A DNA stretch of 64,000 nt from Chryseobacterium gleum (GCA_945902775.1 CAMDMY010000004.1:5914-69913), one strand, 5' to 3'. Shown: positions 2,805 to 32,300, counted from the stretch's first letter. The notes: generated from the letters alone by a model not told the origin. Made by a program: numbers and translations.

Positions 2805-2810
2805 CTTTGT

Positions 2811-3017: not shown

Positions 3018-3040
3018 AGTTTTACAATTTTGTATGAATA

Positions 3041-11162: not shown

Positions 11163-11909
11163 ATGGTCATTGCAATAGCAAATCATAAAGGAGGTTCGGG
11201 TAAAACAACTACTACTTTAAATTTAGGTGTAGCTCTCTCTAATATGGGTAAGAAAGTTTTATTGATTGATTTAGATCCTCAGGGTAATTTATCTTATTCA
11301 TTGGGTATTTCCGACGATTTACCTACTATTGCAGATATAATTACTGGAAATAAATCATTTGAAGATACAATTATTGAGAAACAAGGAGTTAGTGTAATTC
11401 CCTCTAACATGTTTTTGGCTGATATTGAATTATCAATTCAAGGAGTTGAAAATAGATTGTATATTTTAAAAAACCTCCTTCAATCTTTAGTGAAAGAATT
11501 TGATTATGTTTTAATTGATTGTTCGCCTTCAAAATCTTTATTGACTATAAATGCACTAGTCTTAGCTGATAAAATTATCACAACTATTTTATTGGATGTT
11601 TTGAGTGTTCAAGGCTTAAATCAAATTAATAGAACAGTATATGATGTAAAAAGAGGATTTAATAGTGCGCTTTCATTTATTGGTGTATTACCGGTAAATG
11701 TTGATTTGAGAAGTAATATATCGAAAGAGATTTTAACTTTTGTTGAAGAAAATTTTGATATACCACTTATAAAAACATATATCAGAAGTTGTGTGAAATT
11801 TGTTGAGGCACCTTCATTTGGAGAAAGTATTTTTTCATATGCACCACATTCAACTGGGGCTGAAGACTATCAAGTTTTAGCTAAAGAAATAATATCCTTC
11901 AATAATTAG
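11163..11909 (+). CDS. ParA/MinD-family ATPase (PpfA/ParC-like positional ATPase by context)
   Basis: Deviant Walker A IANHKGGSGKTTTT; LIDLDPQGN; Walker B-like VLIDCSP. First gene of the che unit. Confidence 0.85.
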   Translation: MVIAIANHKGGSGKTTTTLNLGVALSNMGKKVLLIDLDPQGNLSYSLGISDDLPTIADIITGNKSFEDTIIEKQGVSVIPSNMFLADIELSIQGVENRLYILKNLLQSLVKEFDYVLIDCSPSKSLLTINALVLADKIITTILLDVLSVQGLNQINRTVYDVKRGFNSALSFIGVLPVNVDLRSNISKEILTFVEENFDIPLIKTYIRSCVKFVEAPSFGESIFSYAPHSTGAEDYQVLAKEIISFNN

Positions 11910-11912
11910 AAT

Positions 11913-12536
11913 ATGGCATTAGGAAAAAACATGAAAGTTGATAGACTTATTCCTTTGGTAGATGAGAATAATGTTGAAAATGAAAAAGTTGATATTAAGT
12001 TAGATCTTACAGACTCAATAAATGAATTAGTTAAAGATGGTAAAAATTCCATTTTAATTGATTTGAATTTAGATAATGAAGATAAAAAAAGTTCAAGTGA
12101 AGAAGTTAAAATTGAGGTAATTAGTGAATTTAAAGAAAAGGTTGTTGAAGATATACCTCAAACTAATTCTCAATCTTCAATTGTTTATGAAAATATTGAA
12201 ACAGATTCTCTTAAGATTATTTTCACTCCCTCAAGAAGAAAAACACAAAAAAGAATTTTAATTAATATTGAAGGTTCTTTGACAATTAATAATGTAGAAG
12301 TTTTATTTTCAAAAGTTAATGTTGTTTTTGATTATTTTGATTTTGTAGAAGTAAATTTGAATAATGTAACAGAAATTGATTTAACTGTGATTCAATTATT
12401 TCATGCGATTAGAGTGAATTATTGGCCTCAAAAAAAATATATTTCAATAAATGCAGAATTTTCAAGGGATGATAGAAAATTATTAAACTCTTGTGGTTTC
12501 ACAGAGTTTCAAACACAAGTTTCAGCATCTGTATAA
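11913..12536 (+). CDS. Acidic protein with a C-terminal STAS-like (anti-sigma antagonist fold) domain; candidate ParA partner
   Basis: Starts 3 nt after the parA-like stop. The C-terminal half, INIEGSLTINNVEVLF...VEVNLNNVTEIDLTVIQLFHAI, resembles a STAS domain. Basic N-terminus MALGKNMKVDR. Confidence 0.5.
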   Translation: MALGKNMKVDRLIPLVDENNVENEKVDIKLDLTDSINELVKDGKNSILIDLNLDNEDKKSSSEEVKIEVISEFKEKVVEDIPQTNSQSSIVYENIETDSLKIIFTPSRRKTQKRILINIEGSLTINNVEVLFSKVNVVFDYFDFVEVNLNNVTEIDLTVIQLFHAIRVNYWPQKKYISINAEFSRDDRKLLNSCGFTEFQTQVSASV

Positions 12537-12563
12537 AGTTCTTAGAAAAATTAGAAGTAAAAA

Positions 12564-12932
12564 ATGGCAAAAATTATATTAATAGTTGATGATTCTGAAA
12601 GTATAAGAGAAGTTGTTGGTCATGCTTTACGAAGCGAAGGCTACAATGTTTTGGTTGGTGTAGATGGACAACATGGCTTGGAAATATTATTGGAAAATGA
12701 TAACGTAAATTTGATAATTTCAGATTTAAATATGCCTCGTATGGATGGAATTTCTTTCTTAAAAGAAGTCAGAAAATTAGATACTTTTAAATATCTTCCA
12801 ATTTTAATCTTAACTACAGAATCGCAAGAATCTAAAAAGATTGAAGCGAAAAATTCAGGTGCAACAGGTTGGATAATTAAACCCTTTGTGAAAGAGAAAT
12901 TACTCGCAGTAGTAAAAAAAGTATTGCACTGA
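12564..12932 (+). CDS. cheY: CheY-like response regulator
   Basis: 122 aa: [24 protein letters not shown]. Its stop overlaps the cheA start (TGATG). Confidence 0.88.
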   Translation: MAKIILIVDDSESIREVVGHALRSEGYNVLVGVDGQHGLEILLENDNVNLIISDLNMPRMDGISFLKEVRKLDTFKYLPILILTTESQESKKIEAKNSGATGWIIKPFVKEKLLAVVKKVLH

Positions 12933-15049
12933 TGGAAGAAATGAAAGATACATATATTCAAGAAGCCAATGAGTTATTAGAAAACTTAGAATCTTCTTTG
13001 TTATCGTTAGAAGACAATCCGAATGATAAATCGAATATTGAGCAAGTTTTTAGAGTAATGCATACCTTGAAGGGTAATAGCAGTATGTTTGGTTTGTCTA
13101 AAATTGCTGAATTTGTTCACGATTTGGAGACAATTTATGATAAAATTAGACAGGGCGAAATGCAATTGTCTAAGGAAATTTTAAATACAACTTTGGCCTC
13201 TTTCGATCATTTGAATTTAATTATTGTAGATTCAGAATTAGAAAATATTGATAACGCTGAAAATCATGTTCGTTTAATCAATGAAATTCATAAATTTATT
13301 GATAAACCTAAAAATGATTCGAATCACCCAGTTTCAATTGAATCTTCAAATGAATCTAGTCATATTTCAGATAATGATACGGAAGGTCCTAAAACATATT
13401 ATATACATTTCGAACCAAACGATACAATTTTCTTGGATGGATCGAATCCTTTGTATTTAGTAGCCGAATTAGTAGCTTTTGGAAAAAGTATAGTTGTTCC
13501 TCATTTTAAAACGATAACTACTTTAACTGATTTTGATCCGACTAAATGTTTTACTTTTTGGGATATCTATGTTGAGACAGACAAGCCATTAACTGATATT
13601 CAAGATGTTTTTGTTTTTGTTGAAGGTAATTCAATTATTGAAATTACTGAAATTCCATTTATTGATTTAATTTCAAATCATTCGTTTAATGAAGTGGTTA
13701 ATGGAACAAATTTTAAAGATTTAAAAACGGATATTACAGCTATCTTATTATTAGCTGAAAGTATAGGAACCAAAATAGTTAAAGAAAAAATACCGGTTAA
13801 TAGTGCTTCATTAGAAGAGGTTAAATCTGAAAAGCCAAAATCAATTACTTCAAGTAAATCGGAAGTAAAAGAAAAGGTTGTTTCTAGTATTCGAGTTTCT
13901 TCTGATAAGTTAGATGAATTGATGAATCTAGTTAGTGAATTAGTAACGACACAAGCCAGTTTAAGTTTATATAATCAAAAAAACGAAACGCCTGAATTAG
14001 AGATAATCTCAGAAAATATCGAGAAATTATCAAGAAGATTAAGAGATATTGCATTTGGAATGACTTTAGTTCCAATTAACAATATGTTCAGTCGTTTTCA
14101 AAGGTTGGTTAGAGATATGTCTGACATGCTTGGTAAGGAGATTCAATTCGTTACCGAAGGTGGTGAGACGGAACTTGATAAATCAATTATTGAAACATTG
14201 ACAGATCCTTTAATGCATATTATTCGTAATAGTTTGGATCATGGATTAGAGAAAGCAGAAGTACGTGAAGAGAATGGGAAACCAAGAAAAGGGACCGTTA
14301 AATTAAAAGCATTTTATTCTGGGATTTCTGTATACATTCAAATTATTGATGATGGTAAAGGGATTGATGTTGAAGCAGTTCGTTCAAAAGCAATAAGCAA
14401 AGGATTTATTAAAGAGAACGATGTTTTAACTGATAAAGAAATTTTCGATTACATTTTTTATCCTGGTTTTTCAACCGCACAGGTAGTCACTGATATCTCA
14501 GGCAGAGGAGTAGGGATGGATGTAGTAAAAAGAAATATTACTGATTTGAAAGGTTCAATTATTGTTGAATCAAAAGTAAATATTGGTACAACTTTAACTA
14601 TTAAATTACCTTTAAGTTTATCTATCATAGATGGATTATTGGTTGAAATCGATAAAGTCAATTACATTATACCTTTAACAGTCGTAAACAAGTGTTATGA
14701 AGTTGATAATGCTGAAATGGTAAATAACTTCAATAAACTGTTAATATTAGACGATAATCAAATTCCATTTATCAATATTAGAAATGAGTTTGGTTACAAA
14801 GACACGTACGATTCCGATAAATCTCAAATCATTGTAGTTAGCGATGGAGATAAGAAAGTAGGCATAAGTGTTGATTATATAGTTGGTGAATATCAGGCAG
14901 TTGTAAAACCAATAGGTAAATATTATAAAAATCAAGATTTTATTTCTGGAGCAACCATTTTGGGTGATGGTTCAATTGCTTTGGTAATGGATACGCATAA
15001 AATCATTGATTTATATACAGAACATGTTAAATTAGAAACAATAAAGTAA
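12932..15049 (+). CDS. cheA: Chemotaxis histidine kinase CheA
   Basis: Hpt/P1 motif MHTLKGNSSMFG; P3 IRVSSDKLDELMNLVSELV; P4 HIIRNSLDHG, DDGKGID, GRGVGMDVV; C-terminal CheW-like P5. Confidence 0.95.
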   Translation: MEEMKDTYIQEANELLENLESSLLSLEDNPNDKSNIEQVFRVMHTLKGNSSMFGLSKIAEFVHDLETIYDKIRQGEMQLSKEILNTTLASFDHLNLIIVDSELENIDNAENHVRLINEIHKFIDKPKNDSNHPVSIESSNESSHISDNDTEGPKTYYIHFEPNDTIFLDGSNPLYLVAELVAFGKSIVVPHFKTITTLTDFDPTKCFTFWDIYVETDKPLTDIQDVFVFVEGNSIIEITEIPFIDLISNHSFNEVVNGTNFKDLKTDITAILLLAESIGTKIVKEKIPVNSASLEEVKSEKPKSITSSKSEVKEKVVSSIRVSSDKLDELMNLVSELVTTQASLSLYNQKNETPELEIISENIEKLSRRLRDIAFGMTLVPINNMFSRFQRLVRDMSDMLGKEIQFVTEGGETELDKSIIETLTDPLMHIIRNSLDHGLEKAEVREENGKPRKGTVKLKAFYSGISVYIQIIDDGKGIDVEAVRSKAISKGFIKENDVLTDKEIFDYIFYPGFSTAQVVTDISGRGVGMDVVKRNITDLKGSIIVESKVNIGTTLTIKLPLSLSIIDGLLVEIDKVNYIIPLTVVNKCYEVDNAEMVNNFNKLLILDDNQIPFINIRNEFGYKDTYDSDKSQIIVVSDGDKKVGISVDYIVGEYQAVVKPIGKYYKNQDFISGATILGDGSIALVMDTHKIIDLYTEHVKLETIK

Positions 15050-15567
15050 TGAAAACAGAATTATCTAATGAGCAATTAACGGGTACAACAAAGTCTTTTT
15101 TGTCTTTTAAATTAGCAGAAGAGAGTTTTACAATTCCCGTTATGAAAATTATGGAAATTTTAGAAGTTCCAAAGATTACAAAAGTCCCCCAATCTCCCAA
15201 TTTTTTAGTAGGAGTAATCAATTTAAGAGGTGCGGTTTTACCTGTAATTGATACAAGAATTAAATTCGGAATGTCTCAAATACAATATACAATTAATACA
15301 TGTATTTTAGTATTAAGTATTGAAGTGAATGACGAAGAAGTGGTGGTAGGAGCTCTTGTAGATTCTGTTTCAGAGGTATTTGAATTAGATGAGAGCAAAA
15401 TAAAGCCAACTCCAACAATTGCTACGAAATATAGAGCGGATTATATTCAAGGGATGATTCAGGAAGATGATCATTTTATGATGGTGTTAAATATTGATAA
15501 AGTATTTTCATCTCTCGATTTAGAGTCTATTGTAGAATCCAAAGAAATTAATGTCAAAGAAGATTAA
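15049..15567 (+). CDS. cheW: Coupling protein CheW
   Basis: 172 aa: FLSFKLAEESFTIPVMKIMEI...VINLRGAVLPVIDTR. TAATG overlap with cheA. Confidence 0.9.
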   Translation: MKTELSNEQLTGTTKSFLSFKLAEESFTIPVMKIMEILEVPKITKVPQSPNFLVGVINLRGAVLPVIDTRIKFGMSQIQYTINTCILVLSIEVNDEEVVVGALVDSVSEVFELDESKIKPTPTIATKYRADYIQGMIQEDDHFMMVLNIDKVFSSLDLESIVESKEINVKED

Positions 15568-15610
15568 AAATTTTATCCATTTCAATAATTAAACTAATAA
15601 AAATTAAACT

Positions 15611-18568
15611 ATGAAAAAATTCAGAGCTTTCCCAATTAAAAAACAATTAATCTATGCTTTTTCAATTATTACTTTTTTGATGATAGTTGTTTCATTAACT
15701 CAGTTAGTTATGTTAGAAAAAGCGGAAGAAACAGACTTAAATATTGAAAAATCAAAAGAATTAGAATCTGCTTTTAACAATGTTAAATATGATTTGAGGT
15801 TGGATCAACAAATGGTTATGGAGTTTTTAGCAGCTTCATCAGCAGAAGAAGCTAAATTCCCTCAAGAAAATCATAATAAAGCAAAAAAGGATATTGATAA
15901 AAACATTCAAATTATTCATGATATTACTAATTCAGAAGAATGGGGAAATAATTTTGATGAAGAGAAGAAGAAAATTGATAAAAAATCTAATGAATCTTTG
16001 ACTTTTTATAATGAGAAACTTTTGCCTTTGATGAAATTAGTTGAAAATAATACTTTTCAAAGATTTTCATTAGAAAGATTAGCTAGTACAAATGCTAACT
16101 ATGCTTTAAAGTTGAGAAATAATAATGTTGAAACTGAAAATGCGGATCATAAATTTGATGAGTTGAATGATAATATGGGTTCAAGTATTGATGCATTAAA
16201 TGCAAATATTTTAAATATTATTGATATTTCAAATGAAGAAGCTAAAAGTGTAGCATCTATTTCAAGAATTTTAATTTGGACTGTAAGTTCAATTAGTATA
16301 CTTATTGCCATTTTCTTTGCAAAGTTTATCATCGGAAATATGATGAGAATATTAGGTGCTGAACCAAATGTAGTATCTAATTTTGTTGATGAAGTTGCAC
16401 AAGGAAATCTATCTGTTTCAATTCCTAAAATAAACGGAAAAGAAAATGTTGGTTTACTTAAAGTAGTTGAAAACATGTTAGTTGGACTAGCAAAAGCAGG
16501 GACATTTGCGAAAGAAATTGGTGCTGGAAATTTAAACTCAAATTTTGAATTACTAAGTCCAAAAGATGAATTAGGCCAGTCTTTATTAGAGATGAAGTCG
16601 AATTTAATTACCGCTAAAGAATTAAATGAAGCAAATCAAAGAGAAATTGATGCAAGAATTTCTTTAATGGATGAATTGTGTATTGTTTCGGAGACTGATT
16701 TAAAAGGATATATTACGTATGTAAATGATAAGCATTGTGAAGTTGCTCAATATACTAGAGAAGAATTAATTGGTTCGAATCAAAATATTGTTCGTCATCC
16801 AGATATGCCGAAAGAGTTATTTAAAGAATTATGGTCTACTATTGGTAAAGGTCAGATTTTTAGAGGGATAGTAAAGAACAAGAAAAAAGACGGATCTCCT
16901 TATTATGTTGATGCTGTTTTCGCACCTGTATTAGGAGCAAATGGTAAGCCTGTTAAATATATTGGTGTTAGATATGAAAACACAACTCAAACAATTGAAA
17001 AACAAAGTTCGGATGGAGTTGTTAGTGCAATTAATAGTGCAAACGCATTTATAGAGTTTGATACAAAAGGTAATATTCTAACATTCAATTCAAATTTTGC
17101 CTCAACAATGGGGTATTCTGTTCAAGAAGTTGCTGGTCAACATCACCGTATTTTTGTAGATAAAGAATATGCAAACTCTACTGAATACCAAAGATTTTGG
17201 GAAGATTTAGCAAATGGAGTTACTAAGCAAGGACAATTTAAAAGATATAATAAATCGGGTCAAGAATTATGGTTGCAAGGAATTTATACTTCAGTTAAAG
17301 ATGAAATGGGTAGAATTACTAAAATCATTAAAATTGCTTCTGATATCACCTCTCAAAAAAATATAGAAATTGCTACTGAAAATGCTGCAAAAGAAGTGAC
17401 AAGGGTATTATCAGCATTGTCAAATGGAGATTTAACTCAGAAATATTCAATTATTTCTGAAGCCGATTTGAAATTGATGGGCGACGCTTTAAATTCTACA
17501 ATCGATGTATTAGTTGAGCAAAAAGAGAATGAAATTGAAACACAAAAAGCAGCTGAAGAAGTAAATAGAGTTATTAGTGGTTTAGCTGAAGGAGATTTAA
17601 CTCAAAGATATTCAATTCAATCGAGAGGTCAACTGAAAGCAATGGGTGATGCATTGAATCAAACGATAGATGTATTAAACGATTTAATTTCTAAAGTAAT
17701 AGCTAATGCTGATAATATCGCCTCAGCGAGTATTGAAATGTCAAATTCAGCGCAACAACTATCTGAAGGTGCAACTAACCAAGCAAGTTCAGTAGAAGAA
17801 ATTTCTTCTTCTATGGAACAAATGACGGCTAATATTCAACAAAACACTAGTAACTCTCGCCAAACGGAGAAAATATCAACTACTGCTGCAGTAGATATTA
17901 TTGAAAGTAAAGAGTCTGTTAACGAAACAGAAAATTCTATGAAATTGATTGCTTCTAAAATTTCAATCATTGGTGAAATTTCTAGACAAACTAACTTATT
18001 AGCATTAAATGCTGCGGTTGAAGCAGCAAGAGCTGGTGAACATGGTAGAGGATTTGCTGTGGTTGCTGCTGAGGTTAGAAAATTGGCTGAAAGAAGTCAG
18101 GCAGCTGCAACTGAAATAGATGAAGTATCTGCAAAAAGTGTATTTGTAGCTCAAAAATCAGGTCAAATGTTAAATGATGTAGTTCCAAACATTCAAAAAA
18201 CATCTGATCTAGTTCAAGAGATTACAGCTTCAAGTATTGAACAAAGTTCAGGAGCTGAACAAATAAATAATGCTATTCAAAATTTAAATCATGTTGTACA
18301 AGACAATGCTGCAACGGCTGAGGAAATGGCAGCAGGAGCAGAAGAATTAAGTGCTCAAGCAGAAGAATTACAAAGTGCAGTTTCGTTTTTTAAAATTGAA
18401 GGAGATAATGCGCCTGTAAAGTCACAATTTACAAGTTCAAAAATTAAAAAACAAGAAGTAACTAGAGTGTCGTCTATAAAAAGTAAACCGTCATCATCTA
18501 AATCAACGAATGTATTTATCGATTTAGATGGCAATGATAATTTAGATAGCGAATACCAAAAGTTTTAA
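15611..18568 (+). CDS. Methyl-accepting chemotaxis protein with two TM segments, HAMP, an Aer-type PAS, a second PAS, two further HAMP-like units, a signalling domain and a C-terminal pentapeptide
   Basis: Conserved hairpin tip [44 protein letters not shown]1 carries [32 protein letters not shown], like the E. coli Aer FAD-PAS. Duplicated GDLTQ(K/R)YSI...GDALN.TIDVL units. Ends ...DSEYQKF. Confidence 0.93.
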
Positions 18569-18579
18569 TTTAAACTATT

Positions 18580-18620
18580 GTCAGATGAAATAATTCATTT
18601 CATCTGACATACTTTTTATT
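18580..18620 (+). terminator. Rho-independent terminator after the receptor gene
   Basis: gtcagatgaaa, 7-nt loop, tttcatctgac (11-bp perfect stem), then atactttttattt. Confidence 0.75.
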
Positions 18621-18852
18621 TATGAAAACAAGGTCGACACTTCTTATTATTTTACTTTCTTAGTTTACGGTCAGCTAGATACGTTATCTAAAAACGAAAC
18701 TAGTACGTCAAATAAGAATAAAGTTGAAGTAAAGTTTTTCATATAACTATAAACAATTAGAGATGAGAATATTAGAAAAAAATAAATTTAATTCTGAATT
18801 TTTAATCTCTTAATTAACAATTTAAAAATAAAATAACAAAAAGTATTTTATA

Positions 18853-19683
18853 ATGAAAAGTGTAGTAAAAAAATCAATTATAATTTTATTATTAAGCGTA
18901 ACAACAAATGTTTTAGCTCAAGAAGAAGAGTTACAACCTGAATTTACTGAAAATATAGTTACGGATAGACCGGATCAAACGGAAGCACCAGCGTTGACAC
19001 CAAAAAAGTGGATGCAATTTGAGGTTGGAGTTCAAAGTGAATTCGATAAAGCTGATGGTTATTCATCTCAAAGTTCATTATATCCTACAGTTTTAGCTAA
19101 ATATGGTCTTTCTAAACGATTTGAATTAAGGCTTATTACCGAATATGCAAAAGACAATTTTAAAGTTGGAAATTTTAATTCATTAACATCAGGTTTAGCC
19201 CAATTTACAGTTGGTTCAAAAATTGCAATTAGTGAAGCGAAGGGTTGGTTGCCTCAAATTTCTTTAATTACTCATTTAGAGTTACCTTGGATTGCTTCTA
19301 AAGACTACAGGCCATCTACAATCGTACCTAGATACCGATTTTTATTTTGTCACCCAATAAATGATCGATTAAATTTTTCGTATAATTTGGGTATGGAATG
19401 GGAAAGTGGAACAAGTGTTTCTACAACTATATATACTGCTTCATTAGGCTTTGCTTTAACTGATAATATAGGATGTTTCGTTGAATCATATGGTTTTTTA
19501 AGAGAAAATACTAGTGGAGATAATCGTTTGGATGGAGGGTTAACTTTTTTACTAAATAGTAACCATCAATTAGATATTTCTGCGGGGTTTGGATTAAACG
19601 AAATATCACCAGATTATTTTTTGTCTTGTGGTTATTCTTTTCGTTTAAACGCTTTCGATAAAAATCGAAAAAAAAGTAAATAG
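18853..19683 (+). CDS. Outer-membrane beta-barrel protein (MetA-pathway/phenol-degradation-like transporter family)
   Basis: Signal peptide ...NVLAQ. N-terminal TDRPDQTEAP motif typical of that family. Beta-strand periodicity. Confidence 0.6.
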   Translation: MKSVVKKSIIILLLSVTTNVLAQEEELQPEFTENIVTDRPDQTEAPALTPKKWMQFEVGVQSEFDKADGYSSQSSLYPTVLAKYGLSKRFELRLITEYAKDNFKVGNFNSLTSGLAQFTVGSKIAISEAKGWLPQISLITHLELPWIASKDYRPSTIVPRYRFLFCHPINDRLNFSYNLGMEWESGTSVSTTIYTASLGFALTDNIGCFVESYGFLRENTSGDNRLDGGLTFLLNSNHQLDISAGFGLNEISPDYFLSCGYSFRLNAFDKNRKKSK

Positions 19684-19706
19684 GAAATTCTTCAATTGTA
19701 TATTTT

Positions 19707-20546
19707 ATGCTAGAGAGCGGTAAACAAGATTTAAGTGAAACTGATTTTCATAAATTAGCAGCATTTATTTATGATAATTATGGAATAAAGTTGCCGATTA
19801 CAAAAAAAATTATGCTTGAATCTAGATTAAAACCTAGGTTGAGAATTAATAATATGAGCTCATATAAGGAGTATAGTCAATTTATTTTATCTGGAAAATG
19901 TGGAGAAGCAGAAATCATAAATATGATTGATTTAGTTTCAACAAATAAAACCGATTTTTACAGGGAATCTGCTCATTTTGATTTCATGAAAGAAGTAATA
20001 TTACCGGAGCATTATAACAATCATTCTGAAAGACCTTTTAAAGTATGGAGCTCAGCAAGTTCCTCTGGTGAAGAAGCTTATACGACTGCAATTGTGATAA
20101 ATGAATTTTTGGAGGGAAAAAAATCGTTCGATTTTTCAATTCTAGGTACGGATATTTCTACGAGGATTATAGAAAAAGCTGCTATCGCAATATATCCAAT
20201 CGACAGAGTTGATGTAATTCCGTTATCTCAAAAGAAAAAATATTTATTGAGAAGTAAGGATACTGAAAATCCCACTGTGAGAATTGTTCCAGAGTTAAGA
20301 GCTAAAACTCGTTTTCAGCGATTGAATTTAATGGATAATTCGTATGATGTACCAAAAGATTTTGATGTTATTTTTTGTAGAAACGTGTTGATTTATTTTG
20401 ATAGAGAGACTCAAGAAAAAGTGATATCTAAATTATGTTATCATTTAAGAAAAGGAGGTTATTTTTTTCTAGGACATTCAGAATCTATTTCAGGATATGA
20501 TGTCCCGTTAAAACAAATTAAACCAACTATGTTTCAAAAAATATAA
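19707..20546 (+). CDS. cheR: Chemoreceptor glutamate methyltransferase CheR
   Basis: TDFYRE..., VWSSASSSGEEAYT, IFCRNVLIYFD. Confidence 0.92.
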   Translation: MLESGKQDLSETDFHKLAAFIYDNYGIKLPITKKIMLESRLKPRLRINNMSSYKEYSQFILSGKCGEAEIINMIDLVSTNKTDFYRESAHFDFMKEVILPEHYNNHSERPFKVWSSASSSGEEAYTTAIVINEFLEGKKSFDFSILGTDISTRIIEKAAIAIYPIDRVDVIPLSQKKKYLLRSKDTENPTVRIVPELRAKTRFQRLNLMDNSYDVPKDFDVIFCRNVLIYFDRETQEKVISKLCYHLRKGGYFFLGHSESISGYDVPLKQIKPTMFQKI

Positions 20547-20598
20547 CTAAATGACTACATTTATTTAGCATTTTATAAATGATTTATTATAAAATAAT

Positions 20599-21501
20599 AT
20601 GAAAAAACAATTGACGGATGAAGAGTTATTGAGCGAGTTAAAAAGACGCTTTGATGAGAATAAAAAAATGTTAGAAGATGAACGATTGCTGATTGAAGAG
20701 TTAAATAATGTTAATCAAAAATTATTAGCTTCAGAAAATTTAAAAAGTAATTTTTTATCGAATATTAGAAACGAGATTAATAACCCAATTGCATCGATTT
20801 TAGAATTATCTAAAAATATAAAAGAGGGTCAAATGGATGTTGAATCGATGAAGAGGTTTGCATCTTTGATTTTTTCTGAAACATTTGATTTAGATTTTCA
20901 GTTAAGAAATATTTTCTTGTCTGCGGAAATTGAAGCTGGTGAATCTCCTCTTTCAGTTATTTCTGTAAATATTACGTCTATTGTTTCCAATGTTATAGAT
21001 TCTTTTAAAGCTAAAATTGATAAAAAGGGTATCGAATTAATCTACAATAACACAATTGAGGAAAATACTATTTTTAAAACGGATTCTGAAAAACTACACC
21101 TTATACTTTGTAATCTTTTAGCGAATGCCATTCAATTTAATGATTATGGAGGGAAAATCGAAATTGATACAAAAATTGAAGATAACAAATTCTTTTTTTC
21201 TATAAAAGACAATGGAATTGGTATAGCAGAGGATGAATTAGAAAAAATTTATGATCGTTTTCATCAGATAGAATCAGGCGCTACAAAAACGTATGGTGGG
21301 CATGGTTTAGGTTTAAGTATTACAAAAGCCTTACTTGAAATTTTGGAGGGTAAAATTATTGTTTATAGTAATATAGGTGTAGGGAGTAATTTTATTATCG
21401 AAATTAACCAACTTGATCTAACTGAAGGAGATGAAGATGTTTACTCCTCTGATGGGAATGATTTCTTGTTTGATCAAGAAGAAGATGATATGTTATTTTA
21501 A
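20599..21501 (+). CDS. Cytoplasmic histidine-kinase-like protein lacking the phospho-acceptor His (H-box FLSNIRNEINNPI)
   Basis: Coiled-coil N-terminus. DHp helix aligns to FLANMSHEIRTPL, with Asn58 (AAC at 20770-20772) in the His position. Intact N, G1 and G2 boxes: LLANAIQFN, DNGIGI, GGHGLGLSI. Confidence 0.8.
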   Translation: MKKQLTDEELLSELKRRFDENKKMLEDERLLIEELNNVNQKLLASENLKSNFLSNIRNEINNPIASILELSKNIKEGQMDVESMKRFASLIFSETFDLDFQLRNIFLSAEIEAGESPLSVISVNITSIVSNVIDSFKAKIDKKGIELIYNNTIEENTIFKTDSEKLHLILCNLLANAIQFNDYGGKIEIDTKIEDNKFFFSIKDNGIGIAEDELEKIYDRFHQIESGATKTYGGHGLGLSITKALLEILEGKIIVYSNIGVGSNFIIEINQLDLTEGDEDVYSSDGNDFLFDQEEDDMLF

Positions 21502-21565
21502 ATTAGAAATTGAATGCCTGAGGTTGTTAATTTTTAATCTAAGGTATTTTGTAGTAATATAGAAA

Positions 21566-23112
<1,547 letters not shown>

Positions 23113-23135
23113 TTTATTATTTTTAATGATGGGTA

Positions 23136-23303
23136 TTTTCTACCATATAAGACATATTAGGACATATAAGGAAATGCACACGTATGAGATTTATTTTGTA
23201 AAATAAACATTTAAATGATTAATTTTCCAACTATATAATGTATTAAGCAAATAAGAAAATACACGCAGCCTTATATGATCTTAAATGCCTAATATGGTAA
23301 AAG
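23136..23303. repeat. Imperfect inverted pair of a roughly 35-nt AT-rich motif upstream of the GxxExxY gene
   Basis: The reverse complement of 23136-23171 (ccttatatgtcctaatatgtcttatatggtagaaaa) matches 23269-23303 (ccttatatgatcttaaatgcctaatatggtaaaag) at about 28 of 36 positions. Confidence 0.65.
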
Positions 23304-23351
23304 AAAATCAACTGCGAAGAATAAAAACTTATGTAGTAATAAGAAATATAA

Positions 23352-23765
23352 ATGAAAACTAAAGAATATTACAAACAACTGATTTACAAAGTAAATGGAG
23401 CAGCTATTGAAGTTCATAAAGAGCTTGGACCTGGTTTATTAGAAAGTGTATATCATAAATGTTTGAAATATGAATTAGAACTCCGTGGAATTGAATTTTG
23501 TTCTGAATTAGTAGTGCCAATTGATTATAAAGGGTTGAGATTAGATGCTGATTTAAAATGTGATTTATTTATTGAAAACTCATTGGTAGTAGAATTAAAA
23601 TCAGTTTTAAAAGTATTGCCTGTTCATGAAGCACAAATACTTACTTATATGTCATTACTTGAGGTTCCGATGGGATTAATGTTAAATTTTAATTGCACTA
23701 ATTTATATAAAGAAGGACAAAAAACATATGTAAACTATATGTATAAAACTTTAGAAGAATCATAA
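23352..23765 (+). CDS. GxxExxY family protein (PD-(D/E)XK-like fold)
   Basis: 137 aa: HKELGPGLLESVYHKCL ... DLFIENSLVVELKS ... HEAQILTYM. Confidence 0.85.
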   Translation: MKTKEYYKQLIYKVNGAAIEVHKELGPGLLESVYHKCLKYELELRGIEFCSELVVPIDYKGLRLDADLKCDLFIENSLVVELKSVLKVLPVHEAQILTYMSLLEVPMGLMLNFNCTNLYKEGQKTYVNYMYKTLEES

Positions 23766-23780
23766 ATCTTTTGATAATTT

Positions 23781-23814
23781 CTTATATGACCTTACATTCC
23801 TTAAATGGTAAAAA
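23781..23814. repeat. Third copy of the 34-nt motif, in direct orientation relative to 23270-23303
   Basis: cttatatgaccttacattccttaaatggtaaaaa against cttatatgatcttaaatgcctaatatggtaaaag: 28 of 34 identical by hand alignment. Confidence 0.65.
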
Positions 23815-23849
23815 AATAAATAAAATTTAAAAGTAAAAAACATAACAAA

Positions 23850-24212
23850 ATGAAAAAAGTATTAATTGTAGATGATTCAATGTATATGCGAACATTAATA
23901 AAAACAGCATTAACAGCAACTGAAAGATATGAAATTATTGGTCAGGCAGCTACTGGTAGTCAAGGTATTGAAATGGCATTAGAATTTGAGCCAGATTTAA
24001 TTACCATGGATAATATTTTACCAGATATGATTGGTATTGATATTGTTAAAGAATTACGTGCAGAAGGAATATCAGCAAAAATAATTATGGTTAGTGCTGT
24101 CGGACAAGACGATGTTGTTGAAGAAGGGATAGCGAATGGAGCACAAGACTATTTAGTAAAACCTTTTACAGCAGATCAATTAGTAGAAAGAGTAGACAAT
24201 TTATTTGTTTAA
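23850..24212 (+). CDS. Second CheY-like single-domain response regulator
   Basis: 120 aa: IVDDS, ITMDNILPDM, MVSA, VKPF. Confidence 0.88.
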   Translation: MKKVLIVDDSMYMRTLIKTALTATERYEIIGQAATGSQGIEMALEFEPDLITMDNILPDMIGIDIVKELRAEGISAKIIMVSAVGQDDVVEEGIANGAQDYLVKPFTADQLVERVDNLFV

Positions 24213-24237
24213 TTTTCTTAACTAAAAACTACAGATT

Positions 24238-24849
24238 ATGATGAAAGATTTGACTCCACAGGAGATAGACGTTGCTAGAAAAATAATTTCAGCAGGTTTA
24301 GTAAAATCAGCAGAATCGTTATCATTTTTTATGAATGAAACTATTTCATTGAAAGATTTTGATGCTGAAAAGAATTTAGATAATCCACCTTTAGAATTAG
24401 GTAAAAAAGATGAAAGTAATATTCATTTACTAACTACAAAGGTTATTGGTGAAATGAAAGGAATTTGTTGTTTGATTTTTTCAGAAGAAGAAGCAAATCA
24501 TTTAAGAAAAGCAGCACTTCCTCAAGAAATTTTAGATAGTCCTGAAATGATGGAAGAAATGAGTGATGGAATTATGTTAGAGGTTGATAATATTATTTCA
24601 GCATCAGTAATTACTCAATTTTCTAATTTATTAAAAGTTAAAATTCATGGTGGTGTACCGGACTTGAAAAAAGTTTCTTTTGAGGAAATGGAAGATTACA
24701 TTTCTAGTGAAGTTAATAACGAACTGTATTTAATCAGTTTTAAAACAAGTTTTGAATCATCTAAAGCACAATTTAATCCTGAATTTGTCTGGTTGTTTGA
24801 TAATACATTTATTGACAATATAAAAAAATATGCAGCATTAGAAGTTTAA
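24238..24849 (+). CDS. CheC/CheX/FliY-family CheY-P phosphatase-like protein with one intact active-site motif
   Basis: E115-x2-N118-x22-P141 (LEVDNIISASVITQFSNLLKVKIHGGVP; nt 24580-24660) fits the E-x2-N-x22-P family signature. The N-terminal repeat lacks E..N. Confidence 0.6.
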   Translation: MMKDLTPQEIDVARKIISAGLVKSAESLSFFMNETISLKDFDAEKNLDNPPLELGKKDESNIHLLTTKVIGEMKGICCLIFSEEEANHLRKAALPQEILDSPEMMEEMSDGIMLEVDNIISASVITQFSNLLKVKIHGGVPDLKKVSFEEMEDYISSEVNNELYLISFKTSFESSKAQFNPEFVWLFDNTFIDNIKKYAALEV

Positions 24850-24880
24850 TTATCCTACTAAATTTTGAAATATTTCCCCT

Positions 24881-26167
24881 ATGAAAGTATTAATAATCGA
24901 AAATGATGCAACTCATACCTTCAAGTTAAAAGAGATTTTAACAAATTTAGGATATGAAAAAGTGGAAATTGTATCTGATAGTCAATCAGCAATTATCGCA
25001 TTTGAAAAAGATCAACCAAACTTAATTTTAGTTGATTTAAATGATTCAGAATTTAGATATATTGAAGTAGTCACTCAATTTAAGAAAAGTAAAGAAATTC
25101 CCGTTTTATATATTGTTTCAAGTTTAAATGAAGAAATTTTAGAAAAAACAAAGAGTACAGAACCAATTGGGTTTATTACAATTCCTGTCGATATACTTCA
25201 ATTAAAATCGTTAATTAATATAGCATTTACGTTACATTCAAAATTCACTAGCAATATTGATCAATTGAATGAACAACTAAATATGGCAATGTTGCAAGTA
25301 GATGAGTTAACAGAGACAAATTCACATTTAATTACAGCTACATTTAGAGAAAGAGCCTTAAAACAAGAGTTAGGTCAAACTAAAGCACTTATTGAGGCTC
25401 AAAGTAAGAAGATAGTAGATAGTATAAATTATTCTTTAAGAATTCAACAGTCAATAATACCTTCTTCAGAAACTTTTAAAGAAGCATTAGGTAATCATAG
25501 TGTTTTTTATAAACCAAAAGATGTCGTGTCAGGAGATTTTCCTTGGTTAATGAGAAAAGACAACTATGTGTATTATGGAGCAATTGATTGTACAGGACAT
25601 GGGGTTCCTGGAGCGATGATGTCAATGATTGGGAATTTATTGTTAAATGCGATAGTTGAGAACGGAAATTCTTGTAAAACACCTTCAGAAGTCTTAGCTG
25701 AACTTCACAAAGCAGTTGTTCAAACTCTAAAACAAGATGCGGAAGGGAATAAAGCTGCAGATGGAATGGATGCTGCTTTATGTAGAATCGATTTTGAAAA
25801 GAAAGAATTGTTATTTTCTGGAGCGCATCTTCCTTTGTTACTTTTAAGAGACGGAGAATTGGAGACATTTAAAGGGGATAAGTTTCCTGTTGGTGGTATG
25901 CAATATCGTAATCGAAATACGTATTCCGATCACACAATTCAATTGAAAGAAAAAGATCGTGTTTTTGTTTTTTCTGACGGTATTATTGATCAAGTTGGTG
26001 GAGAGGAAAACATGAAATGGATGACATCTAGATTAAAAGAATTTATTCTTGAAAATCAAGATGTATCAATGACCGATTTTAAAGAAACGATTAGCCAGAA
26101 GTTTGAAGAATTTAAAGGGGAACACAAACAAGTTGATGATGTATTATTAATAGGTGTTGAAATCTAA
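24881..26167 (+). CDS. Receiver-domain-fused PP2C/SpoIIE-family Ser/Thr phosphatase (SiaA/RsbU-like)
   Basis: Atypical N-terminal REC: IIEND, Asp52 in LILVDLN, ITIP in place of the KP motif. Coiled-coil linker. PP2C motifs VSGDFPW, DCTGHGVPGAMMS, DGMDAAL, SDGIIDQ, DDVLLIGVEI. Confidence 0.85.
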   Translation: MKVLIIENDATHTFKLKEILTNLGYEKVEIVSDSQSAIIAFEKDQPNLILVDLNDSEFRYIEVVTQFKKSKEIPVLYIVSSLNEEILEKTKSTEPIGFITIPVDILQLKSLINIAFTLHSKFTSNIDQLNEQLNMAMLQVDELTETNSHLITATFRERALKQELGQTKALIEAQSKKIVDSINYSLRIQQSIIPSSETFKEALGNHSVFYKPKDVVSGDFPWLMRKDNYVYYGAIDCTGHGVPGAMMSMIGNLLLNAIVENGNSCKTPSEVLAELHKAVVQTLKQDAEGNKAADGMDAALCRIDFEKKELLFSGAHLPLLLLRDGELETFKGDKFPVGGMQYRNRNTYSDHTIQLKEKDRVFVFSDGIIDQVGGEENMKWMTSRLKEFILENQDVSMTDFKETISQKFEEFKGEHKQVDDVLLIGVEI

Positions 26168-26170
26168 TAT

Positions 26171-26704
26171 ATGGAATATACTTATACATTGCAGAAAATA
26201 ATGGCAGAGAGTAATTATCTACTGGCCATTAGAGATAATTTTGAAAGTTTATTATCCAAATCGGTTTTTTCAATTGTTGAAAGTCAAATTTCGAATGATA
26301 AGCTAGATGTAAATATTAAAAATAGAATATTTAGTGTCGTTGTTGAATGTGTTCAAAATATTTGTTCAAATGATAAAGCACATTCTACTACAAAAAATTC
26401 TATCTTACTGTTAAATAAAGTTGATTATGGACATAATATTGTTGTAGGTACCAAACTCAATGAAGAAAGAAAATTAAGATTAGAAAAAATTTTAACTGAA
26501 ATTTCAACATCAAGCATTGAAGAACTAAAAATAAAAAGAAAAAGTATAATTTCTTCTAGGACTAATTTAGAGGAATATCAAAAGGAGATATTAGCTTTAA
26601 TTGATATGTTTATACGCTCGGCTGGAAAGGTGAAATATCACTTTCAAGGAGAAGATGGGAACGATTGTTTTTTAATAATTGAAATAGAAATTTCTAATAA
26701 ATAA
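26171..26704 (+). CDS. SiaB-like small GHKL-fold protein, paralogue 1 (Gly-rich ATP-lid motif not detectable)
   Basis: 177 aa. Similar in length and pattern to the next ORF (FSVVVECVQNI against FNVMVEQLQNI) but has no GxGLG box. Starts 3 nt after the phosphatase gene. Confidence 0.5.
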   Translation: MEYTYTLQKIMAESNYLLAIRDNFESLLSKSVFSIVESQISNDKLDVNIKNRIFSVVVECVQNICSNDKAHSTTKNSILLLNKVDYGHNIVVGTKLNEERKLRLEKILTEISTSSIEELKIKRKSIISSRTNLEEYQKEILALIDMFIRSAGKVKYHFQGEDGNDCFLIIEIEISNK

Positions 26705-26708
26705 AATT

Positions 26709-27266
26709 ATGACTCTTAAGGATACATCTTTAAAACAAATTCATTCAATTATGAATGATGAAAATGCAGTTTTAATATACTCGGGAGAATTTAATCAAGA
26801 GATTGTGAAATCTATGTTAAGTTACACCGAAGGAAAATTAGAATCTTCAGGTATTGATGACCTAGTTAGAAAAAAGATTTTCAATGTGATGGTTGAACAA
26901 CTTCAGAATATAACTAAACATCAATACACAGATGAAGAAAAACAAGTAATTCAACCATGTTTTATATTGATTGAACATGAAAATTATTATAATCTTGTTA
27001 CAGGTAATCCGATTCATATTGACACCATACAGATGGTAAAAGATAGAATAGATCAAGTGAATAGTTTGAATGCTGAAGAATTAAAAGCCTTATACAAACA
27101 AGCAAGGTTGAATTCAAGAATATCTGAAGTCGGTGGAGCAGGTTTAGGGTTTATTGATGTTGCTAGAAAAACAGAAAATAAACTTGAATTTGCTTTTTTT
27201 GATATCGACTCAGAAAATTATAAATATTTCACTTTGAAAACTCAAATAAATAAAATTATTGAGTAA
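26709..27266 (+). CDS. SiaB-like small protein kinase (GHKL fold), paralogue 2
   Basis: 185 aa. N-box-like VEQLQNITKH. G-box EVGGAGLGFIDVARK (nt 27132-27149). Flanked by the PP2C and DUF1987 genes. Confidence 0.6.
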   Translation: MTLKDTSLKQIHSIMNDENAVLIYSGEFNQEIVKSMLSYTEGKLESSGIDDLVRKKIFNVMVEQLQNITKHQYTDEEKQVIQPCFILIEHENYYNLVTGNPIHIDTIQMVKDRIDQVNSLNAEELKALYKQARLNSRISEVGGAGLGFIDVARKTENKLEFAFFDIDSENYKYFTLKTQINKIIE

Positions 27267-27344
27267 TTAAAGTAATAAATCATTGTTACTTTTGTAAAAA
27301 ATAGAATCTTAATATTGGTATATATACTATTAAAAAAATAAAAA

Positions 27345-27722
27345 ATGGAACACTTAGTAATTGCGAAAACAGATGATACTCCAGAAATTGACTTCAATCC
27401 TGGAACAAAAGAATTAAAAATTAGTGGTAGATCTTTACCAGAAGATGTAACTACTTTTTATGCACCTGTTCTAGAATGGTTAGATGAGTTGGAAGAATCA
27501 GCTATAGGCGAACTTAAATTCATCGTTAATTTAGAATATTTTAACACAGCATCATCAAAATTAATTTTAGATATTTTGATGAAATTGGAAGATATTCATT
27601 CAGAAGGAAGTAATTCAATAGAAATTATTTGGAATTTTGATAAGCGAGATACGGATATGGAAGAGGCTGCTGAAGAATACTCAGAACTGGTTGAAGTTCC
27701 TTTTCAAATAATTGGAATTTAA
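27345..27722 (+). CDS. DUF1987 / SiaC-family regulatory phosphoprotein
   Basis: 125 aa: TPEIDFNPGTKELKISGRSLPEDVTTFYAPVLEWL. YFNT68ASSK, with the Thr codon ACA at 27546-27548. Confidence 0.75.
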   Translation: MEHLVIAKTDDTPEIDFNPGTKELKISGRSLPEDVTTFYAPVLEWLDELEESAIGELKFIVNLEYFNTASSKLILDILMKLEDIHSEGSNSIEIIWNFDKRDTDMEEAAEEYSELVEVPFQIIGI

Positions 27723-30800: not shown

Positions 30801-30848
30801 CTTAAGAAATTAATGTCATTGAATTTAGTTAACAAAAAAACGGTTTAA
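27834..30848 (+). CDS. ABCG-type (ATPase plus ABC-2 permease) transporter with a roughly 260-aa N-terminal cytosolic module (possibly TerB-like plus FHA-like)
   Basis: Walker A GGSGAGKTTLLNVLSG, signature ISGGQRKRLNIALE, Walker B LFVDEPTSGLS, then multiple TM helices. The N-terminal domain calls are weak and pattern-based. Confidence 0.85.
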   Translation: MSEEILKALMQLFAIIYKQDTGGEKIQDNYVREFLLSQISRERFDTYFDQYTEYINAESSETGEVKRTSVKDSVRTLAICKRINKTLSQKQKSIVLVRITEFIHITETISPLRLELLATISEVFKIEKKESENILAFTAAKSLDDVISNEDFQLYLDKEYFNVNDGRVYNKDGLNAIFYFCLIESAGIVLFRFFGDITVNLNGLQIKENKTYVVNDGSTIRTPKSSVFFSEILTNIRKKGTSENILFDASIPKYTFPNGKVALEGIEIVEESGTLFGIMGGSGAGKTTLLNVLSGIEPTDQATVLLNGYDIKTNEAKANVGFIPQDDLLMEELSVFQNLYYNAKLLNDTWNEVELNERIEKVLKELGLFEIKDITVGNPLNKKISGGQRKRLNIALELIREPLVLFVDEPTSGLSSKDSENVMQLLKHLTQTGKIIFVVIHQPASEIYKLFDKLFILDVGGLPVYYGNPIEAVIYFKTITNQINHEIGECGSCGNVTPEQIFDTLEDKEIDDFGNFTQHRKIKPDTWNKYFKEKFTPKDVVKDKEYDKLVTINPPSLLKQFFVFFTRDILSRFNDKQYVLIALLEAPVLAALLSFIVKSSNNTDNEYTFSMNENVPAYIFMLIIVALFVGLTISAEEIFKDQKILKREKFLRLSRLSYLKSKAVYLTLLSIVQSFLLCAVGNLIIELYDNFFYYWMLIFSVFVFGNILGLLLSSSFKTIVTIYIIIPLIVIPQMILGGAMFKFENLNKSMGGGHHIPVVSNLMVSKWAYEGIMVAQFSQNKYEKEVFEYEQLLSEYNYRTSYLYPYLTDVLNDQLTGRKTEKNKCSDTVYTTLKFEATKTIAKSMLTYDLNDKSIGNAQKFIDDLTNLYQDKQNELSRLKDEKVITLNKKLGKNSLMNLKRGFQNDASSDIVQNSTTKKKYFVENNRVYQNYDHIFLRDHLNPDYNLEGSFMFVPIKSFFGNQIPTFWYNIIIIWLFNILLFIALYFDVLKKLMSLNLVNKKTV

Positions 30849-32268: not shown

Positions 32269-32300
32269 ATGGGTGGTATATTTATCACCCATTTTTTTTT
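32269..32300 (+). terminator. Rho-independent terminator
   Basis: atgggtg, 10-nt loop, cacccat, followed by a run of 9 T. Confidence 0.7.

Follow-up and report, generated by a model that had tools for sequence, protein, structure and literature searches.

What does a chemosensory pathway control when its genes lead into those of a protein phosphatase and a protein kinase? This question is raised by a 64-kb stretch of Chryseobacterium gleum DNA (CAMDMY010000004.1:5914-69913, 64,000 nucleotides), referred to below as the window. Its plus strand carries a complete set of chemosensory (che) genes, which run into genes for homologues of the Pseudomonas aeruginosa proteins SiaA (a PP2C phosphatase), SiaB (a protein kinase) and SiaC (a DUF1987 phosphoprotein), followed by genes for an ATP-binding cassette (ABC) exporter and two putative lipoproteins (Table 1). 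The initial annotation of this DNA, which covered positions 11163-27722, had suggested that a Ser/Thr partner switch is the output of the array. We give a slightly better than even chance to an extended form of this proposal, in which the Che pathway controls a SiaA/SiaB/SiaC-type Ser/Thr partner switch, not a motor, and the switch gates the ABC exporter.

Domains were assigned with Pfam and NCBIfam, using open reading frames (ORFs) of at least 150 aa across the window and of at least 80 aa within the region of interest. The 18 genes listed in the initial annotation were recovered on the plus strand with matching coordinates, together with the 1-nt stop/start overlaps and the gaps of 3-78 nt described there. 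Its statement that the 64 kb hold no flagellar or pilus genes agrees with our scan, in which no such family was found among the ORFs of at least 150 aa (all but ORF 62409-63719). No match to GGDEF was found in the scanned ORFs.

Che genes adjoin the PP2C gene in two gene orders

The conservation of the arrangement was examined at nine further places encoding relatives of the window PP2C protein (41-62% identity), namely L001, L002/L003, L004, L005, L006, L087, L088, L089 and L090. L001 is the complete genome of Paracrocinitomix mangrovi and L006 a Cyclobacteriaceae metagenome-assembled genome (MAG); L007, also cited below, is a Flavobacteriales MAG. Che genes stand directly upstream of the PP2C gene at all nine places, and the cluster is complete at eight of them, L004 having only CheR/CheB.

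The che genes occur in two orders. The window-type order, found for example in L002, L005 and L090, is (ParA-STAS)-cheY-cheA-cheW-MCP-cheR-HK'-cheD-cheB-cheY2-cheX'-PP2C, where MCP stands for the methyl-accepting receptor, HK' for a histidine kinase (HK)-like protein and cheX' for a CheC/CheX-like gene. The P. mangrovi-type order, found for example in L001, L013 and L088, is ParA-MCP-cheW-cheY-cheB-cheA-cheX'-cheR-REC-PP2C, where REC is a receiver domain fused to the phosphatase. The cheR or cheX-like genes often overlap the start of the PP2C gene, cheR by 4 nt in the P. mangrovi type. The link between che and PP2C genes thus survives a reshuffled che order, which argues for function. The che/PP2C/SiaB/SiaC arrangement is far beyond chance and is a conserved operon-like unit in Bacteroidota. 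What the initial annotation had pointed out from one locus, a che-then-sia juxtaposition in a phylum distant from Pseudomonas, recurs across genomes and in both che gene orders.

An ABC exporter module follows siaC

The alignment of SiaC was scanned against one genome per GTDB species, and at least 598 SiaC-related stretches were found. Neighbourhood counts rest on the best 80 of these loci, whose ORFs were searched with the window proteins. All 80 belong to Bacteroidota (Bacteroidales, Marinilabiliales, Cytophagales and Flavobacteriales). Depending on the flank considered, the counts refer to loci with at least 5.5 kb downstream (n=66), at least 7 kb upstream (n=60) or at least 9 kb on both sides (n=46).

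An ABC gene with an N-terminal domain like that of the window directly follows siaC in 58/66 loci, the genes overlapping or lying a short distance apart. A protein of about 300 aa is encoded downstream of siaC in 58/66 loci and one of about 150 aa in 46/66. Upstream, CheR, a receiver-less CheB methylesterase and PP2C precede siaC in 46/60 loci, and CheA or CheW is found near siaC in a single locus of the 46 with both long flanks. In the loci named above, siaC is followed by genes for proteins of about 1000 aa (ABC), 300 aa and 150 aa in L001, L002/3, L005, L007, L013 and L088; in L090 the ABC gene is present and a giant PKD/CHU_C protein takes the place of the two small ones. The initial annotation had closed the locus at 27722. 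The conserved co-directional unit reaches 32244, and from siaC onward a terminator-like hairpin (32269-32292) is found only 3' of the last gene. Because the ABC exporter follows siaC in 58/66 loci, the signal probably does not end at the partner switch, and the exporter is the candidate end point.

Other targets of SiaC were looked for in the loci lacking the ABC gene, and only unrelated housekeeping genes lie 3' of siaC there. Two tandem SiaC genes precede the ABC gene in L013 (9977-10734) and L088 (12216-13003).

In the commonest form of the module, the PP2C protein is a large sensor, either GAF-PAS-PAS-PP2C or dCache-HAMP-GAF-PAS-PP2C, and its gene is preceded by one for a small transmembrane (TM)-GAF protein. 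A GAF/PAS or dCache/HAMP sensor thus replaces the receiver domain in most Bacteroidota, which places the receiver at the input position of the phosphatase. By this comparison, the ancestral unit would be PP2C-SiaB-SiaC-ABC-two lipoproteins, with the PP2C N-terminus as an interchangeable input, and the window would be a variant of this module with a receiver input served by a full Che pathway. Loci of the commonest form (L009-L086; for instance L016:3719-14949 and L073:3453-15040) have a receiver-less CheB gene and either a single CheR gene or two just before the TM-GAF gene, and a gene for MCP, CheA or CheW is almost never found within 10 kb of these orphan CheR/CheB pairs. The sensor PP2C, or else the GAF protein, may serve as their methylation substrate.

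The switch proteins and the receiver on the phosphatase

The homologies of the three switch proteins, already proposed in the initial annotation, are borne out by profile matches and by the solved P. aeruginosa structures. The PP2C protein covers model positions 357-654 of the NCBIfam SiaA profile, below the equivalog cut-off since its N-terminus differs, and its PP2C domain matches the SiaA-PP2C structure 6K4E (E=2.9e-36). The catalytic motifs GDF, GHG, DGMD, SDG and VDDV are all present. The SiaB-family kinase matches SiaB in the structure 6KKO (chain A, 2.8e-7), with the N-box (E..QN) and the G-box (GGAGLG) conserved. SiaC matches chain C of the same structure (E=6.5e-14), and its closest named relative is that of L007 (90% identity). 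In alignment A1, to which P. aeruginosa SiaC belongs, Thr68 of SiaC does not vary; in the P. aeruginosa protein it is the site at which SiaB adds the phosphoryl group and SiaA removes it (PMC7647112).

A second, divergent SiaB-like protein is encoded between the phosphatase and the kinase. In the alignment its N-box is kept and the Gly-rich ATP lid GGAGLG is replaced. The paralogue is conserved in the che-linked loci L001, L002, L005 and L007, though only one DUF6272 gene is present in L006 and in L090. Judging from these residues, it is a probable pseudokinase or non-catalytic switch partner.

The N-terminus of the window phosphatase consists of a degenerate receiver without a TM segment, and holds no membrane/HAMP sensor as in SiaA. 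The receiver consensus of this PP2C family is E7-D8...D52...T79...K101. The window protein has E7, N8, D52, V79 and I101, a loss of three of the five conserved receiver residues (D8N, T79V, K101I) that is found only in the window and in relatives at least 92% identical to it. The receiver is canonical in L001, L002, L007, L087, L088 and L089, degenerate in L090 and, more so than in the window, in L005, and absent in L006. The fused receiver had been used in the initial annotation as an argument for the link to the array; this argument is weak for the window, and most other clusters have a canonical receiver. Since the receiver is degenerate in the window, direct phosphotransfer from CheA to PP2C is doubtful here.

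A degenerate or absent receiver coincides with a stand-alone CheY2 gene before the PP2C gene in the window, L005, L006 and L090; with L013 unclear and the sample small, this is a hint only. CheY2 is the orthologue of the single CheY of P. mangrovi-type clusters, with 61% identity to the CheY of L001 as against 34% for CheY1.

The exporter and its N-terminal domains

The exporter is ABCG-like and consists of a TerB-like helical domain (aa 1-147), an FHA-like beta domain (aa 152-237), a nucleotide-binding domain, an ABC-2 membrane domain, an extracytoplasmic domain and a C-terminal TM segment. At E<=10, Pfam gave nothing usable for the N-terminus or the C-terminal domain of the window exporter, nor for the two proteins encoded downstream. 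In homologues of the exporter, the first 250 residues match Pfam TerB (PF05099). The N-terminus was modelled with AlphaFold2 (AF2) from a 60-sequence alignment (pLDDT 86, pTM 0.82), giving a helical bundle (aa 1-147) and a beta domain (aa 152-237).

When this model was compared with the PDB by Foldseek, the 50 best matches were almost without exception FHA domains (Rad53 FHA1, KIF1A, MEK1 and Bdellovibrio DgcB), with E from 0.008 up, the best 16 below about 0.05, and probabilities mostly above 0.9; PG1108 matched the helical part. With the profile of the beta domain, only one PDB entry was matched at E<=10, namely the FHA domain of MEK1 (E=0.03), aligned on an invariant LNG motif. Conserved positions of the beta domain are K/R167, S185, N202, G203 and G217. 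The exporter has no match to Pfam FHA. With moderate confidence, we regard the beta domain as FHA-like, and we infer that it could bind phospho-Thr.

The putative lipoprotein encoded next (301 aa) has a near-invariant Cys23 and is highly conserved, with 75-97% identity in many relatives from metagenomes. AF2 models it with confidence (pLDDT 84), but Foldseek found no neighbour of the model in the PDB (best E 0.09), so that the structure gives no hint of function.

Proposed mechanism and alternatives

Gene content, conserved residues and linkage suggest the following sequence of events. The 34H membrane receptor, which has a domain in the periplasm and two PAS domains on the cytoplasmic side, would control CheA through CheW, with adaptation by CheR, CheB and CheD. 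The ParA-like ATPase and the STAS protein would organise or modulate the array. CheA would phosphorylate CheY2, the receiver present in both cluster types, as well as CheY1 and CheB, and the CheC/X-like protein, possibly with the His-less HK-like protein, would strip the phosphoryl group. The state of the receiver would then set PP2C activity, directly through the canonical fused receiver in most relatives; where this domain is degenerate (window, L005, L090) or absent (L006), the signal would more likely come in trans from CheY2. PP2C and the SiaB kinase would together set the phosphorylation of SiaC Thr68, the lid-less SiaB paralogue acting as a non-catalytic binding partner. Finally, one phospho-form of SiaC would bind the TerB/FHA-like N-terminus of the exporter and alter the export of an envelope or surface component, together with the two lipoproteins.

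The last step is proposed because of the precedents of SiaC-SiaD and Rv1747. SiaC activates the neighbouring SiaD by binding to it, and it has been proposed that proteins of the DUF1987 family modulate those adjacent to them (PMC8457831). Rv1747 of Mycobacterium tuberculosis is an FHA-containing ABC exporter regulated by Ser/Thr phosphorylation (PMC3138270). Like the window exporter, it is of the ABC-2/ABCG type, has N-terminal cytoplasmic domain(s) of the FHA type (FHA-like in the window) and is encoded beside Ser/Thr phosphorylation machinery. The window protein differs in having one FHA-like domain, recognised at the level of the fold, after a TerB-like bundle, and its neighbouring kinase is SiaB-type, not Hanks-type.

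Several observations weigh against a pathway from array to switch to exporter. In the window receiver the Asp that binds Mg is missing, as are Thr and Lys, and no other protein of the cluster changes as fast as REC-PP2C, which is 74% identical to its counterpart in L007 where its neighbours reach about 90%. The window cluster is interrupted by two insertions and a terminator-like hairpin, which could mean that the connection is weakening in this lineage. CheY1 or CheY2 might also act on some other target encoded elsewhere. The ABC gene is missing after siaC in L006 and in 8/66 loci, and L089 encodes REC-PP2C without adjoining SiaB/SiaC. As to the exporter, Foldseek found nothing in the PDB at E<=0.001 for its N-terminus, and the canonical GR...SxxH signature of FHA domains is not evident in the alignment, which has no clear GR or His.

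The flow of information might also be reversed. The PP2C/SiaB/SiaC switch and the STAS protein would then be an input or modulator of the array, with SiaC or STAS acting for instance on CheA or the receptor, and the true output would be CheY1 or CheY2 acting on an unlinked target such as a gliding or adhesion machinery. A STAS protein does head the cluster, and for Campylobacterota it has been proposed that such a protein acts on a chemoreceptor (PMC9239204). Moreover, the degenerate or absent receiver in the window, L005, L006 and L090 indicates that a phosphorylatable receiver on PP2C is dispensable. However, SiaC keeps its exporter neighbour in the great majority of loci and is almost never near CheA/CheW, so that the conserved partner of SiaC is the ABC module and not the array; in addition, the canonical REC-PP2C of most che-linked orthologues puts the phosphatase downstream of the kinase. 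We therefore regard reversed flow as unlikely.

Equally improbable in our judgement is a vestigial link, in which the Che pathway and the PP2C/SiaB/SiaC/ABC module have become independent in this lineage, or the Che part is being lost. This would fit the confinement of D8N, T79V and K101I to very close relatives, the rapid change of REC-PP2C, and the absence from relatives of the two insertions and of the hairpin at 18579. Decay is, however, not apparent in the genes themselves: all 21 ORFs of the unit are intact with their catalytic motifs conserved, and CheY2 and the CheX-like gene are still tightly packed before PP2C. Furthermore, L005 and L090, with a degenerate receiver, and L006, with none, keep the che-PP2C-SiaB-SiaC order, which points to signalling in trans rather than to decay.

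That two unrelated systems merely adjoin, their likeness to che2/sia of P. aeruginosa being coincidental, would agree with the lack of CheA, CheW and MCP near most Bacteroidota SiaC-ABC modules, with the sensor region that P. aeruginosa SiaA has of its own and with a Sia literature in which no link to Che2 was found, but it is very improbable given an adjacency that survives complete reshuffling of the che order (L001, L013 and L088 versus the window, L002, L005 and L090), starts and stops that overlap or nearly abut, and the CheR and CheB methylesterase genes directly upstream of PP2C in 46/60 SiaC loci.

Chemosensory class of the cluster

The initial annotation had called the cluster Che2/F7-style. 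As to gene order, this holds: cheY-cheA-cheW-MCP-cheR-cheD-cheB matches Che2 and, together with the STAS and Ser-phosphatase genes, matches the 'stage 1' F7 plan even better, with the HK-like, outer-membrane (OM) barrel and GxxExxY genes interspersed. The receptor, however, has the traits of F8. Hydropathy and Pfam give the part order TM1 (about aa 17-35), periplasmic domain, TM2 (about aa 220-238), two PAS domains, two HAMP-like repeats, signalling domain, long linker and the C-terminal EYQKF. The signalling domain is 34H, with one 7-residue gap per arm relative to Escherichia coli Tsr, and EYQKF fits the pentapeptide pattern x-[HFYW]-x2-[HFYW] given in PMC7184735. In PMC7184735 and PMC11253619, two-TM 34H receptors with a pentapeptide are assigned to F8, the sister class of F7.

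The possibility that the receptor is an Aer2 homologue was discarded, as it has two TM segments and is 34H instead of soluble 36H; its NCBIfam Aer2 match spans the HAMP and signalling parts only. The NCBIfam and PDB matches of CheA do not discriminate F7 from F8. The receptor thus appears F8-like by receptor traits, the classes themselves being defined by profile hidden Markov models of CheA, CheW, CheB and CheR.

Comparison with known systems

The switch of the window has a homologous PP2C, SiaB-family kinase and DUF1987 SiaC with T68 in common with SiaABCD of P. aeruginosa (PA0172-PA0169), in the same order of phosphatase, kinase, phosphoprotein and target. The target differs, being the GGDEF cyclase SiaD in P. 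aeruginosa and, after siaC in the window, a TerB/FHA-like ABC exporter as the candidate. The input differs as well (a membrane/HAMP sensor in SiaA, a degenerate receiver here), and the window has an additional SiaB-like paralogue, the probable pseudokinase. In P. aeruginosa, siaABCD likewise appears to come after cheB2 of a cheY-cheA-cheW-MCP-cheR-cheD-cheB cluster, with a presumed PA0173/PA0172 junction and strand. The locus tags of SiaB (PA0171), Aer2 (PA0176) and McpA (PA0180) are consistent with adjacency of sia and cheB2.

A che cluster acting on a PP2C-type switch has precedents. In Shewanella oneidensis, RpoS is under the control of two products of the che1 cluster (F7), the REC-PP2C-anti-sigma kinase CrsR and the STAS protein CrsA (PMC9855816, PMC7666153). 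According to Ortega et al. (PMC7184735), the most ancient 'stage 1' F7 clusters of gamma-proteobacteria have the order STAS-cheY-cheA-cheW-cheW-aer2-cheR-cheD-cheB-mcpA-STAS-serine phosphatase; the authors give evidence for a role in stress response and call the function unclear. The likeness to the window lies in a che cluster with a serine phosphatase of the REC-PP2C type and a STAS-fold phosphoprotein, for which a non-motility, stress-type output is proposed there. In place of a switch of the STAS/anti-sigma type, the window has one of the SiaB/SiaC type. The Shewanella system has a GHKL anti-sigma kinase fused to CrsR, a STAS phosphoprotein and RpoS as target, whereas the window has a separate SiaB kinase, a DUF1987 phosphoprotein, an exporter nearby and no sigma factor. 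Indeed, no sigma factor gene was found in the unit, and Pfam found no HATPase domain in its PP2C protein. The Che1 and stage-1 F7 receptor is the soluble 36H Aer2, in contrast to the 34H receptor with two TM segments of the window. In this respect the window resembles F8 systems (Pseudomonas syringae cluster II, M. alcaliphilum), with a single cluster-encoded 34H two-TM receptor with pentapeptide; in the F8 sections of PMC7184735 and PMC11253619, SiaB/SiaC genes are not mentioned.

In a search of full-text literature, no connection of SiaC/DUF1987, DUF6272 or SiaABCD with chemosensory systems was found, and no text with both PA0172 and PA0173. The claim of the initial annotation that a Che-to-SiaABC pathway had not been described thus stands for the SiaB/SiaC form, but not for the concept of a Che-controlled PP2C switch, which is precedented by CrsR/CrsA and the stage-1 F7 clusters. 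What appears to be new, in that it turned up in none of the papers found, is a Che-linked switch of the SiaABC type, its Bacteroidota setting and the predicted exporter output.

Two papers (PMC9855816, PMC7184735) still give the output of Aer2-type F7 systems in Pseudomonas, Vibrio and, largely, Shewanella as unknown. A complete Che cluster joined to SiaA/B/C homologues in a distant phylum without flagella provides independent comparative evidence for signalling from array to partner switch, and the idea that Che2 acts on SiaABCD becomes directly testable in a genetically tractable organism. The chemosensory genes of Bacteroidota, hitherto without an assigned function, gain a candidate role in regulated export through a TerB/FHA-like ABC transporter and two lipoproteins. 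The comparison also brings to light a signalling module that is very common in Bacteroidota (at least 598 SiaC-related stretches) and on which no paper was found.

A wider proposal is more doubtful, and we put it forward tentatively. For arrays of the F7/F8 lineage, the ancestral output may have been a Ser/Thr partner switch, which in Bacteroidota would run from Che through PP2C/SiaB/SiaC to an FHA-like domain that reads phospho-Thr and gates an ABC exporter; by the same logic, SiaABCD would be the output of P. aeruginosa Che2. If true, this would define a new output class for chemosensory pathways and make SiaABCD, hence cyclic di-GMP and aggregation, the long-sought output of Che2.

Features of the locus

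Table 1. Genes and terminator-like hairpins of the che/PP2C/SiaB/SiaC/ABC unit in the window, with the matches on which the assignments are based.
Feature	Position	Strand	Evidence
ParA/MinD-type ATPase	11163..11909	+	AAA_31 2.5e-49, CbiA
STAS-domain protein, 207 aa	11913..12536	+	profile-level match
CheY1, canonical single-domain receiver	12564..12932	+	Response_reg 93 bits; DD, D, T, K residues present
CheA (Hpt, dimerisation, HATPase, CheW domains)	12932..15049	+	Pfam/NCBIfam; Hpt His in VMHTLKG
CheW	15049..15567	+	CheW 123.7 bits
Methyl-accepting receptor, 985 aa	15611..18568	+	Pfam: 2 PAS, HAMP, MCPsignal
Terminator-like hairpin after receptor gene	18579..18609	+	13-bp stem, then T-rich tail
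Outer-membrane beta-barrel (Phenol_MetA_deg), signal peptide	18853..19683	+	Pfam
CheR	19707..20546	+	CheR 191 bits, CheR_N
HK-like protein, intact HATPase_c	20599..21501	+	DHp with His replaced by Asn (SNIRNEINNP)
CheD deamidase	21566..22036	+	CheD 95 bits
CheB methylesterase with receiver	22036..23112	+	NF001965 454.6 bits, cut-off 293
GxxExxY / PD-(D/E)XK_3 protein	23352..23765	+	PF13366 7e-37, TIGR04256
CheY2, canonical receiver	23850..24212	+	Response_reg 92.6 bits
CheC/CheX-like protein	24238..24849	+	weak CheX 4e-4, CheC_Thtogales 1.3e-8
SiaA-type PP2C with degenerate N-terminal receiver	24881..26167	+	SpoIIE 82 bits; best NCBIfam match SiaA 4.8e-53
Divergent SiaB paralogue	26171..26704	+	DUF6272 1.2e-14; SiaB_fam (NF038262) 48 bits, cut-off 85
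SiaB-family protein kinase	26709..27266	+	NF038262 139.5 bits, cut-off 85
SiaC-family (DUF1987) phosphoprotein	27345..27722	+	PF09345 125.8 bits, cut-off 24.5
ABCG-like fused exporter, candidate output	27834..30848	+	ABC_tran and ABC2_membrane (Pfam)
Conserved putative lipoprotein, 301 aa	30879..31784	+	near-invariant Cys23 after hydrophobic leader; no Pfam match
Small conserved secreted or lipo-protein, about 150 aa	31792..32244	+	hydrophobic N-terminus; no Pfam match
Terminator-like hairpin closing unit	32269..32292	+	10-bp stem, then T8

The ParA-like gene, which ends 3 nt upstream of the STAS gene, is also first in the che clusters of L001, L087, L088 and L089; its product is likely an array-positioning factor. 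The N-terminus of the STAS protein is acidic and of low complexity, and its STAS domain is C-terminal. On its own the protein has no significant match, and the domain alone matches Pfam STAS at E=0.0065. At the level of the family the assignment made in the initial annotation holds, as 45/60 members match Pfam STAS and the profile of the C-terminal domain matches RsbV (6M36_B, E=2e-6), TM1442 and SpoIIAA. The phosphorylatable Ser is absent from the window protein (IDLT), and its position is Leu or Ile in the family. Orthologues precede cheY in L005, L006 and L064.

The HK-like protein was correctly described as His-less. The replacement of His by Asn in its H-box is common to the orthologues of L002, L005, L006, L007 and L066, and the protein keeps E at +1 and N at +4 of the box. 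The E-x2-N-x22-P motif of the CheC/X-like protein is kept in all orthologues, and this protein is a putative CheY-P phosphatase or adaptor.

Two genes of the window do not seem to belong to the system. The OM barrel gene lies between the receptor gene and cheR, just 3' of the hairpin that follows the receptor gene, which had been noted as a terminator and was found again with its 13-bp stem. No homologue of the barrel was found in the 86 related loci searched, and cheR comes directly after the MCP gene in L002, L005, L006 and L090; the barrel is probably a lineage-specific insertion outside the conserved system. The second is the GxxExxY gene (23352-23765), an ORF overlooked in the initial annotation, whose gene list is thereby incomplete between cheB and cheY2. 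It is absent from this position in L002, L005, L006 and L007, and is a lineage-specific insertion, not a member of the system, behaving like a small mobile insertion.

In the relatives checked, both insertions are missing, and the gaps between the MCP gene and cheR and between cheB and cheY2 measure about 90 nt. The locus had been divided into three separate units. The gaps are indeed as described, but since both genes are absent from the relatives that could be checked, the split results from two insertions into a formerly contiguous cluster.

Surroundings of the locus

Just upstream of the cluster, the window encodes an OmpL-like BBP2 porin (9817-10938) and, on the minus strand, a 1078-aa hybrid histidine kinase (5752-8988) with GAF, several PAS, HisKA, HATPase and two REC domains. 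In L001, L088 and L089 a REC-PAS-HisKA_3 kinase is encoded upstream of the ParA gene, and L001 and L089 also have a GerE regulator. An extra two-component input may therefore be associated with these clusters.

Downstream of the unit, two giant ORFs (37103-41719, 1538 aa, and 42404-51997, 3197 aa) have no Pfam match. A 1537-aa counterpart follows PrmA in L005, so that at least the first giant ORF is conserved.

At the left end of the window, the minus strand carries cbb3-type cytochrome oxidase genes (1359-5236), with a fused CcoN-CcoO and a FixP-like gene. These genes point to a capacity for microaerobic respiration, which may bear on the PAS-containing receptor.

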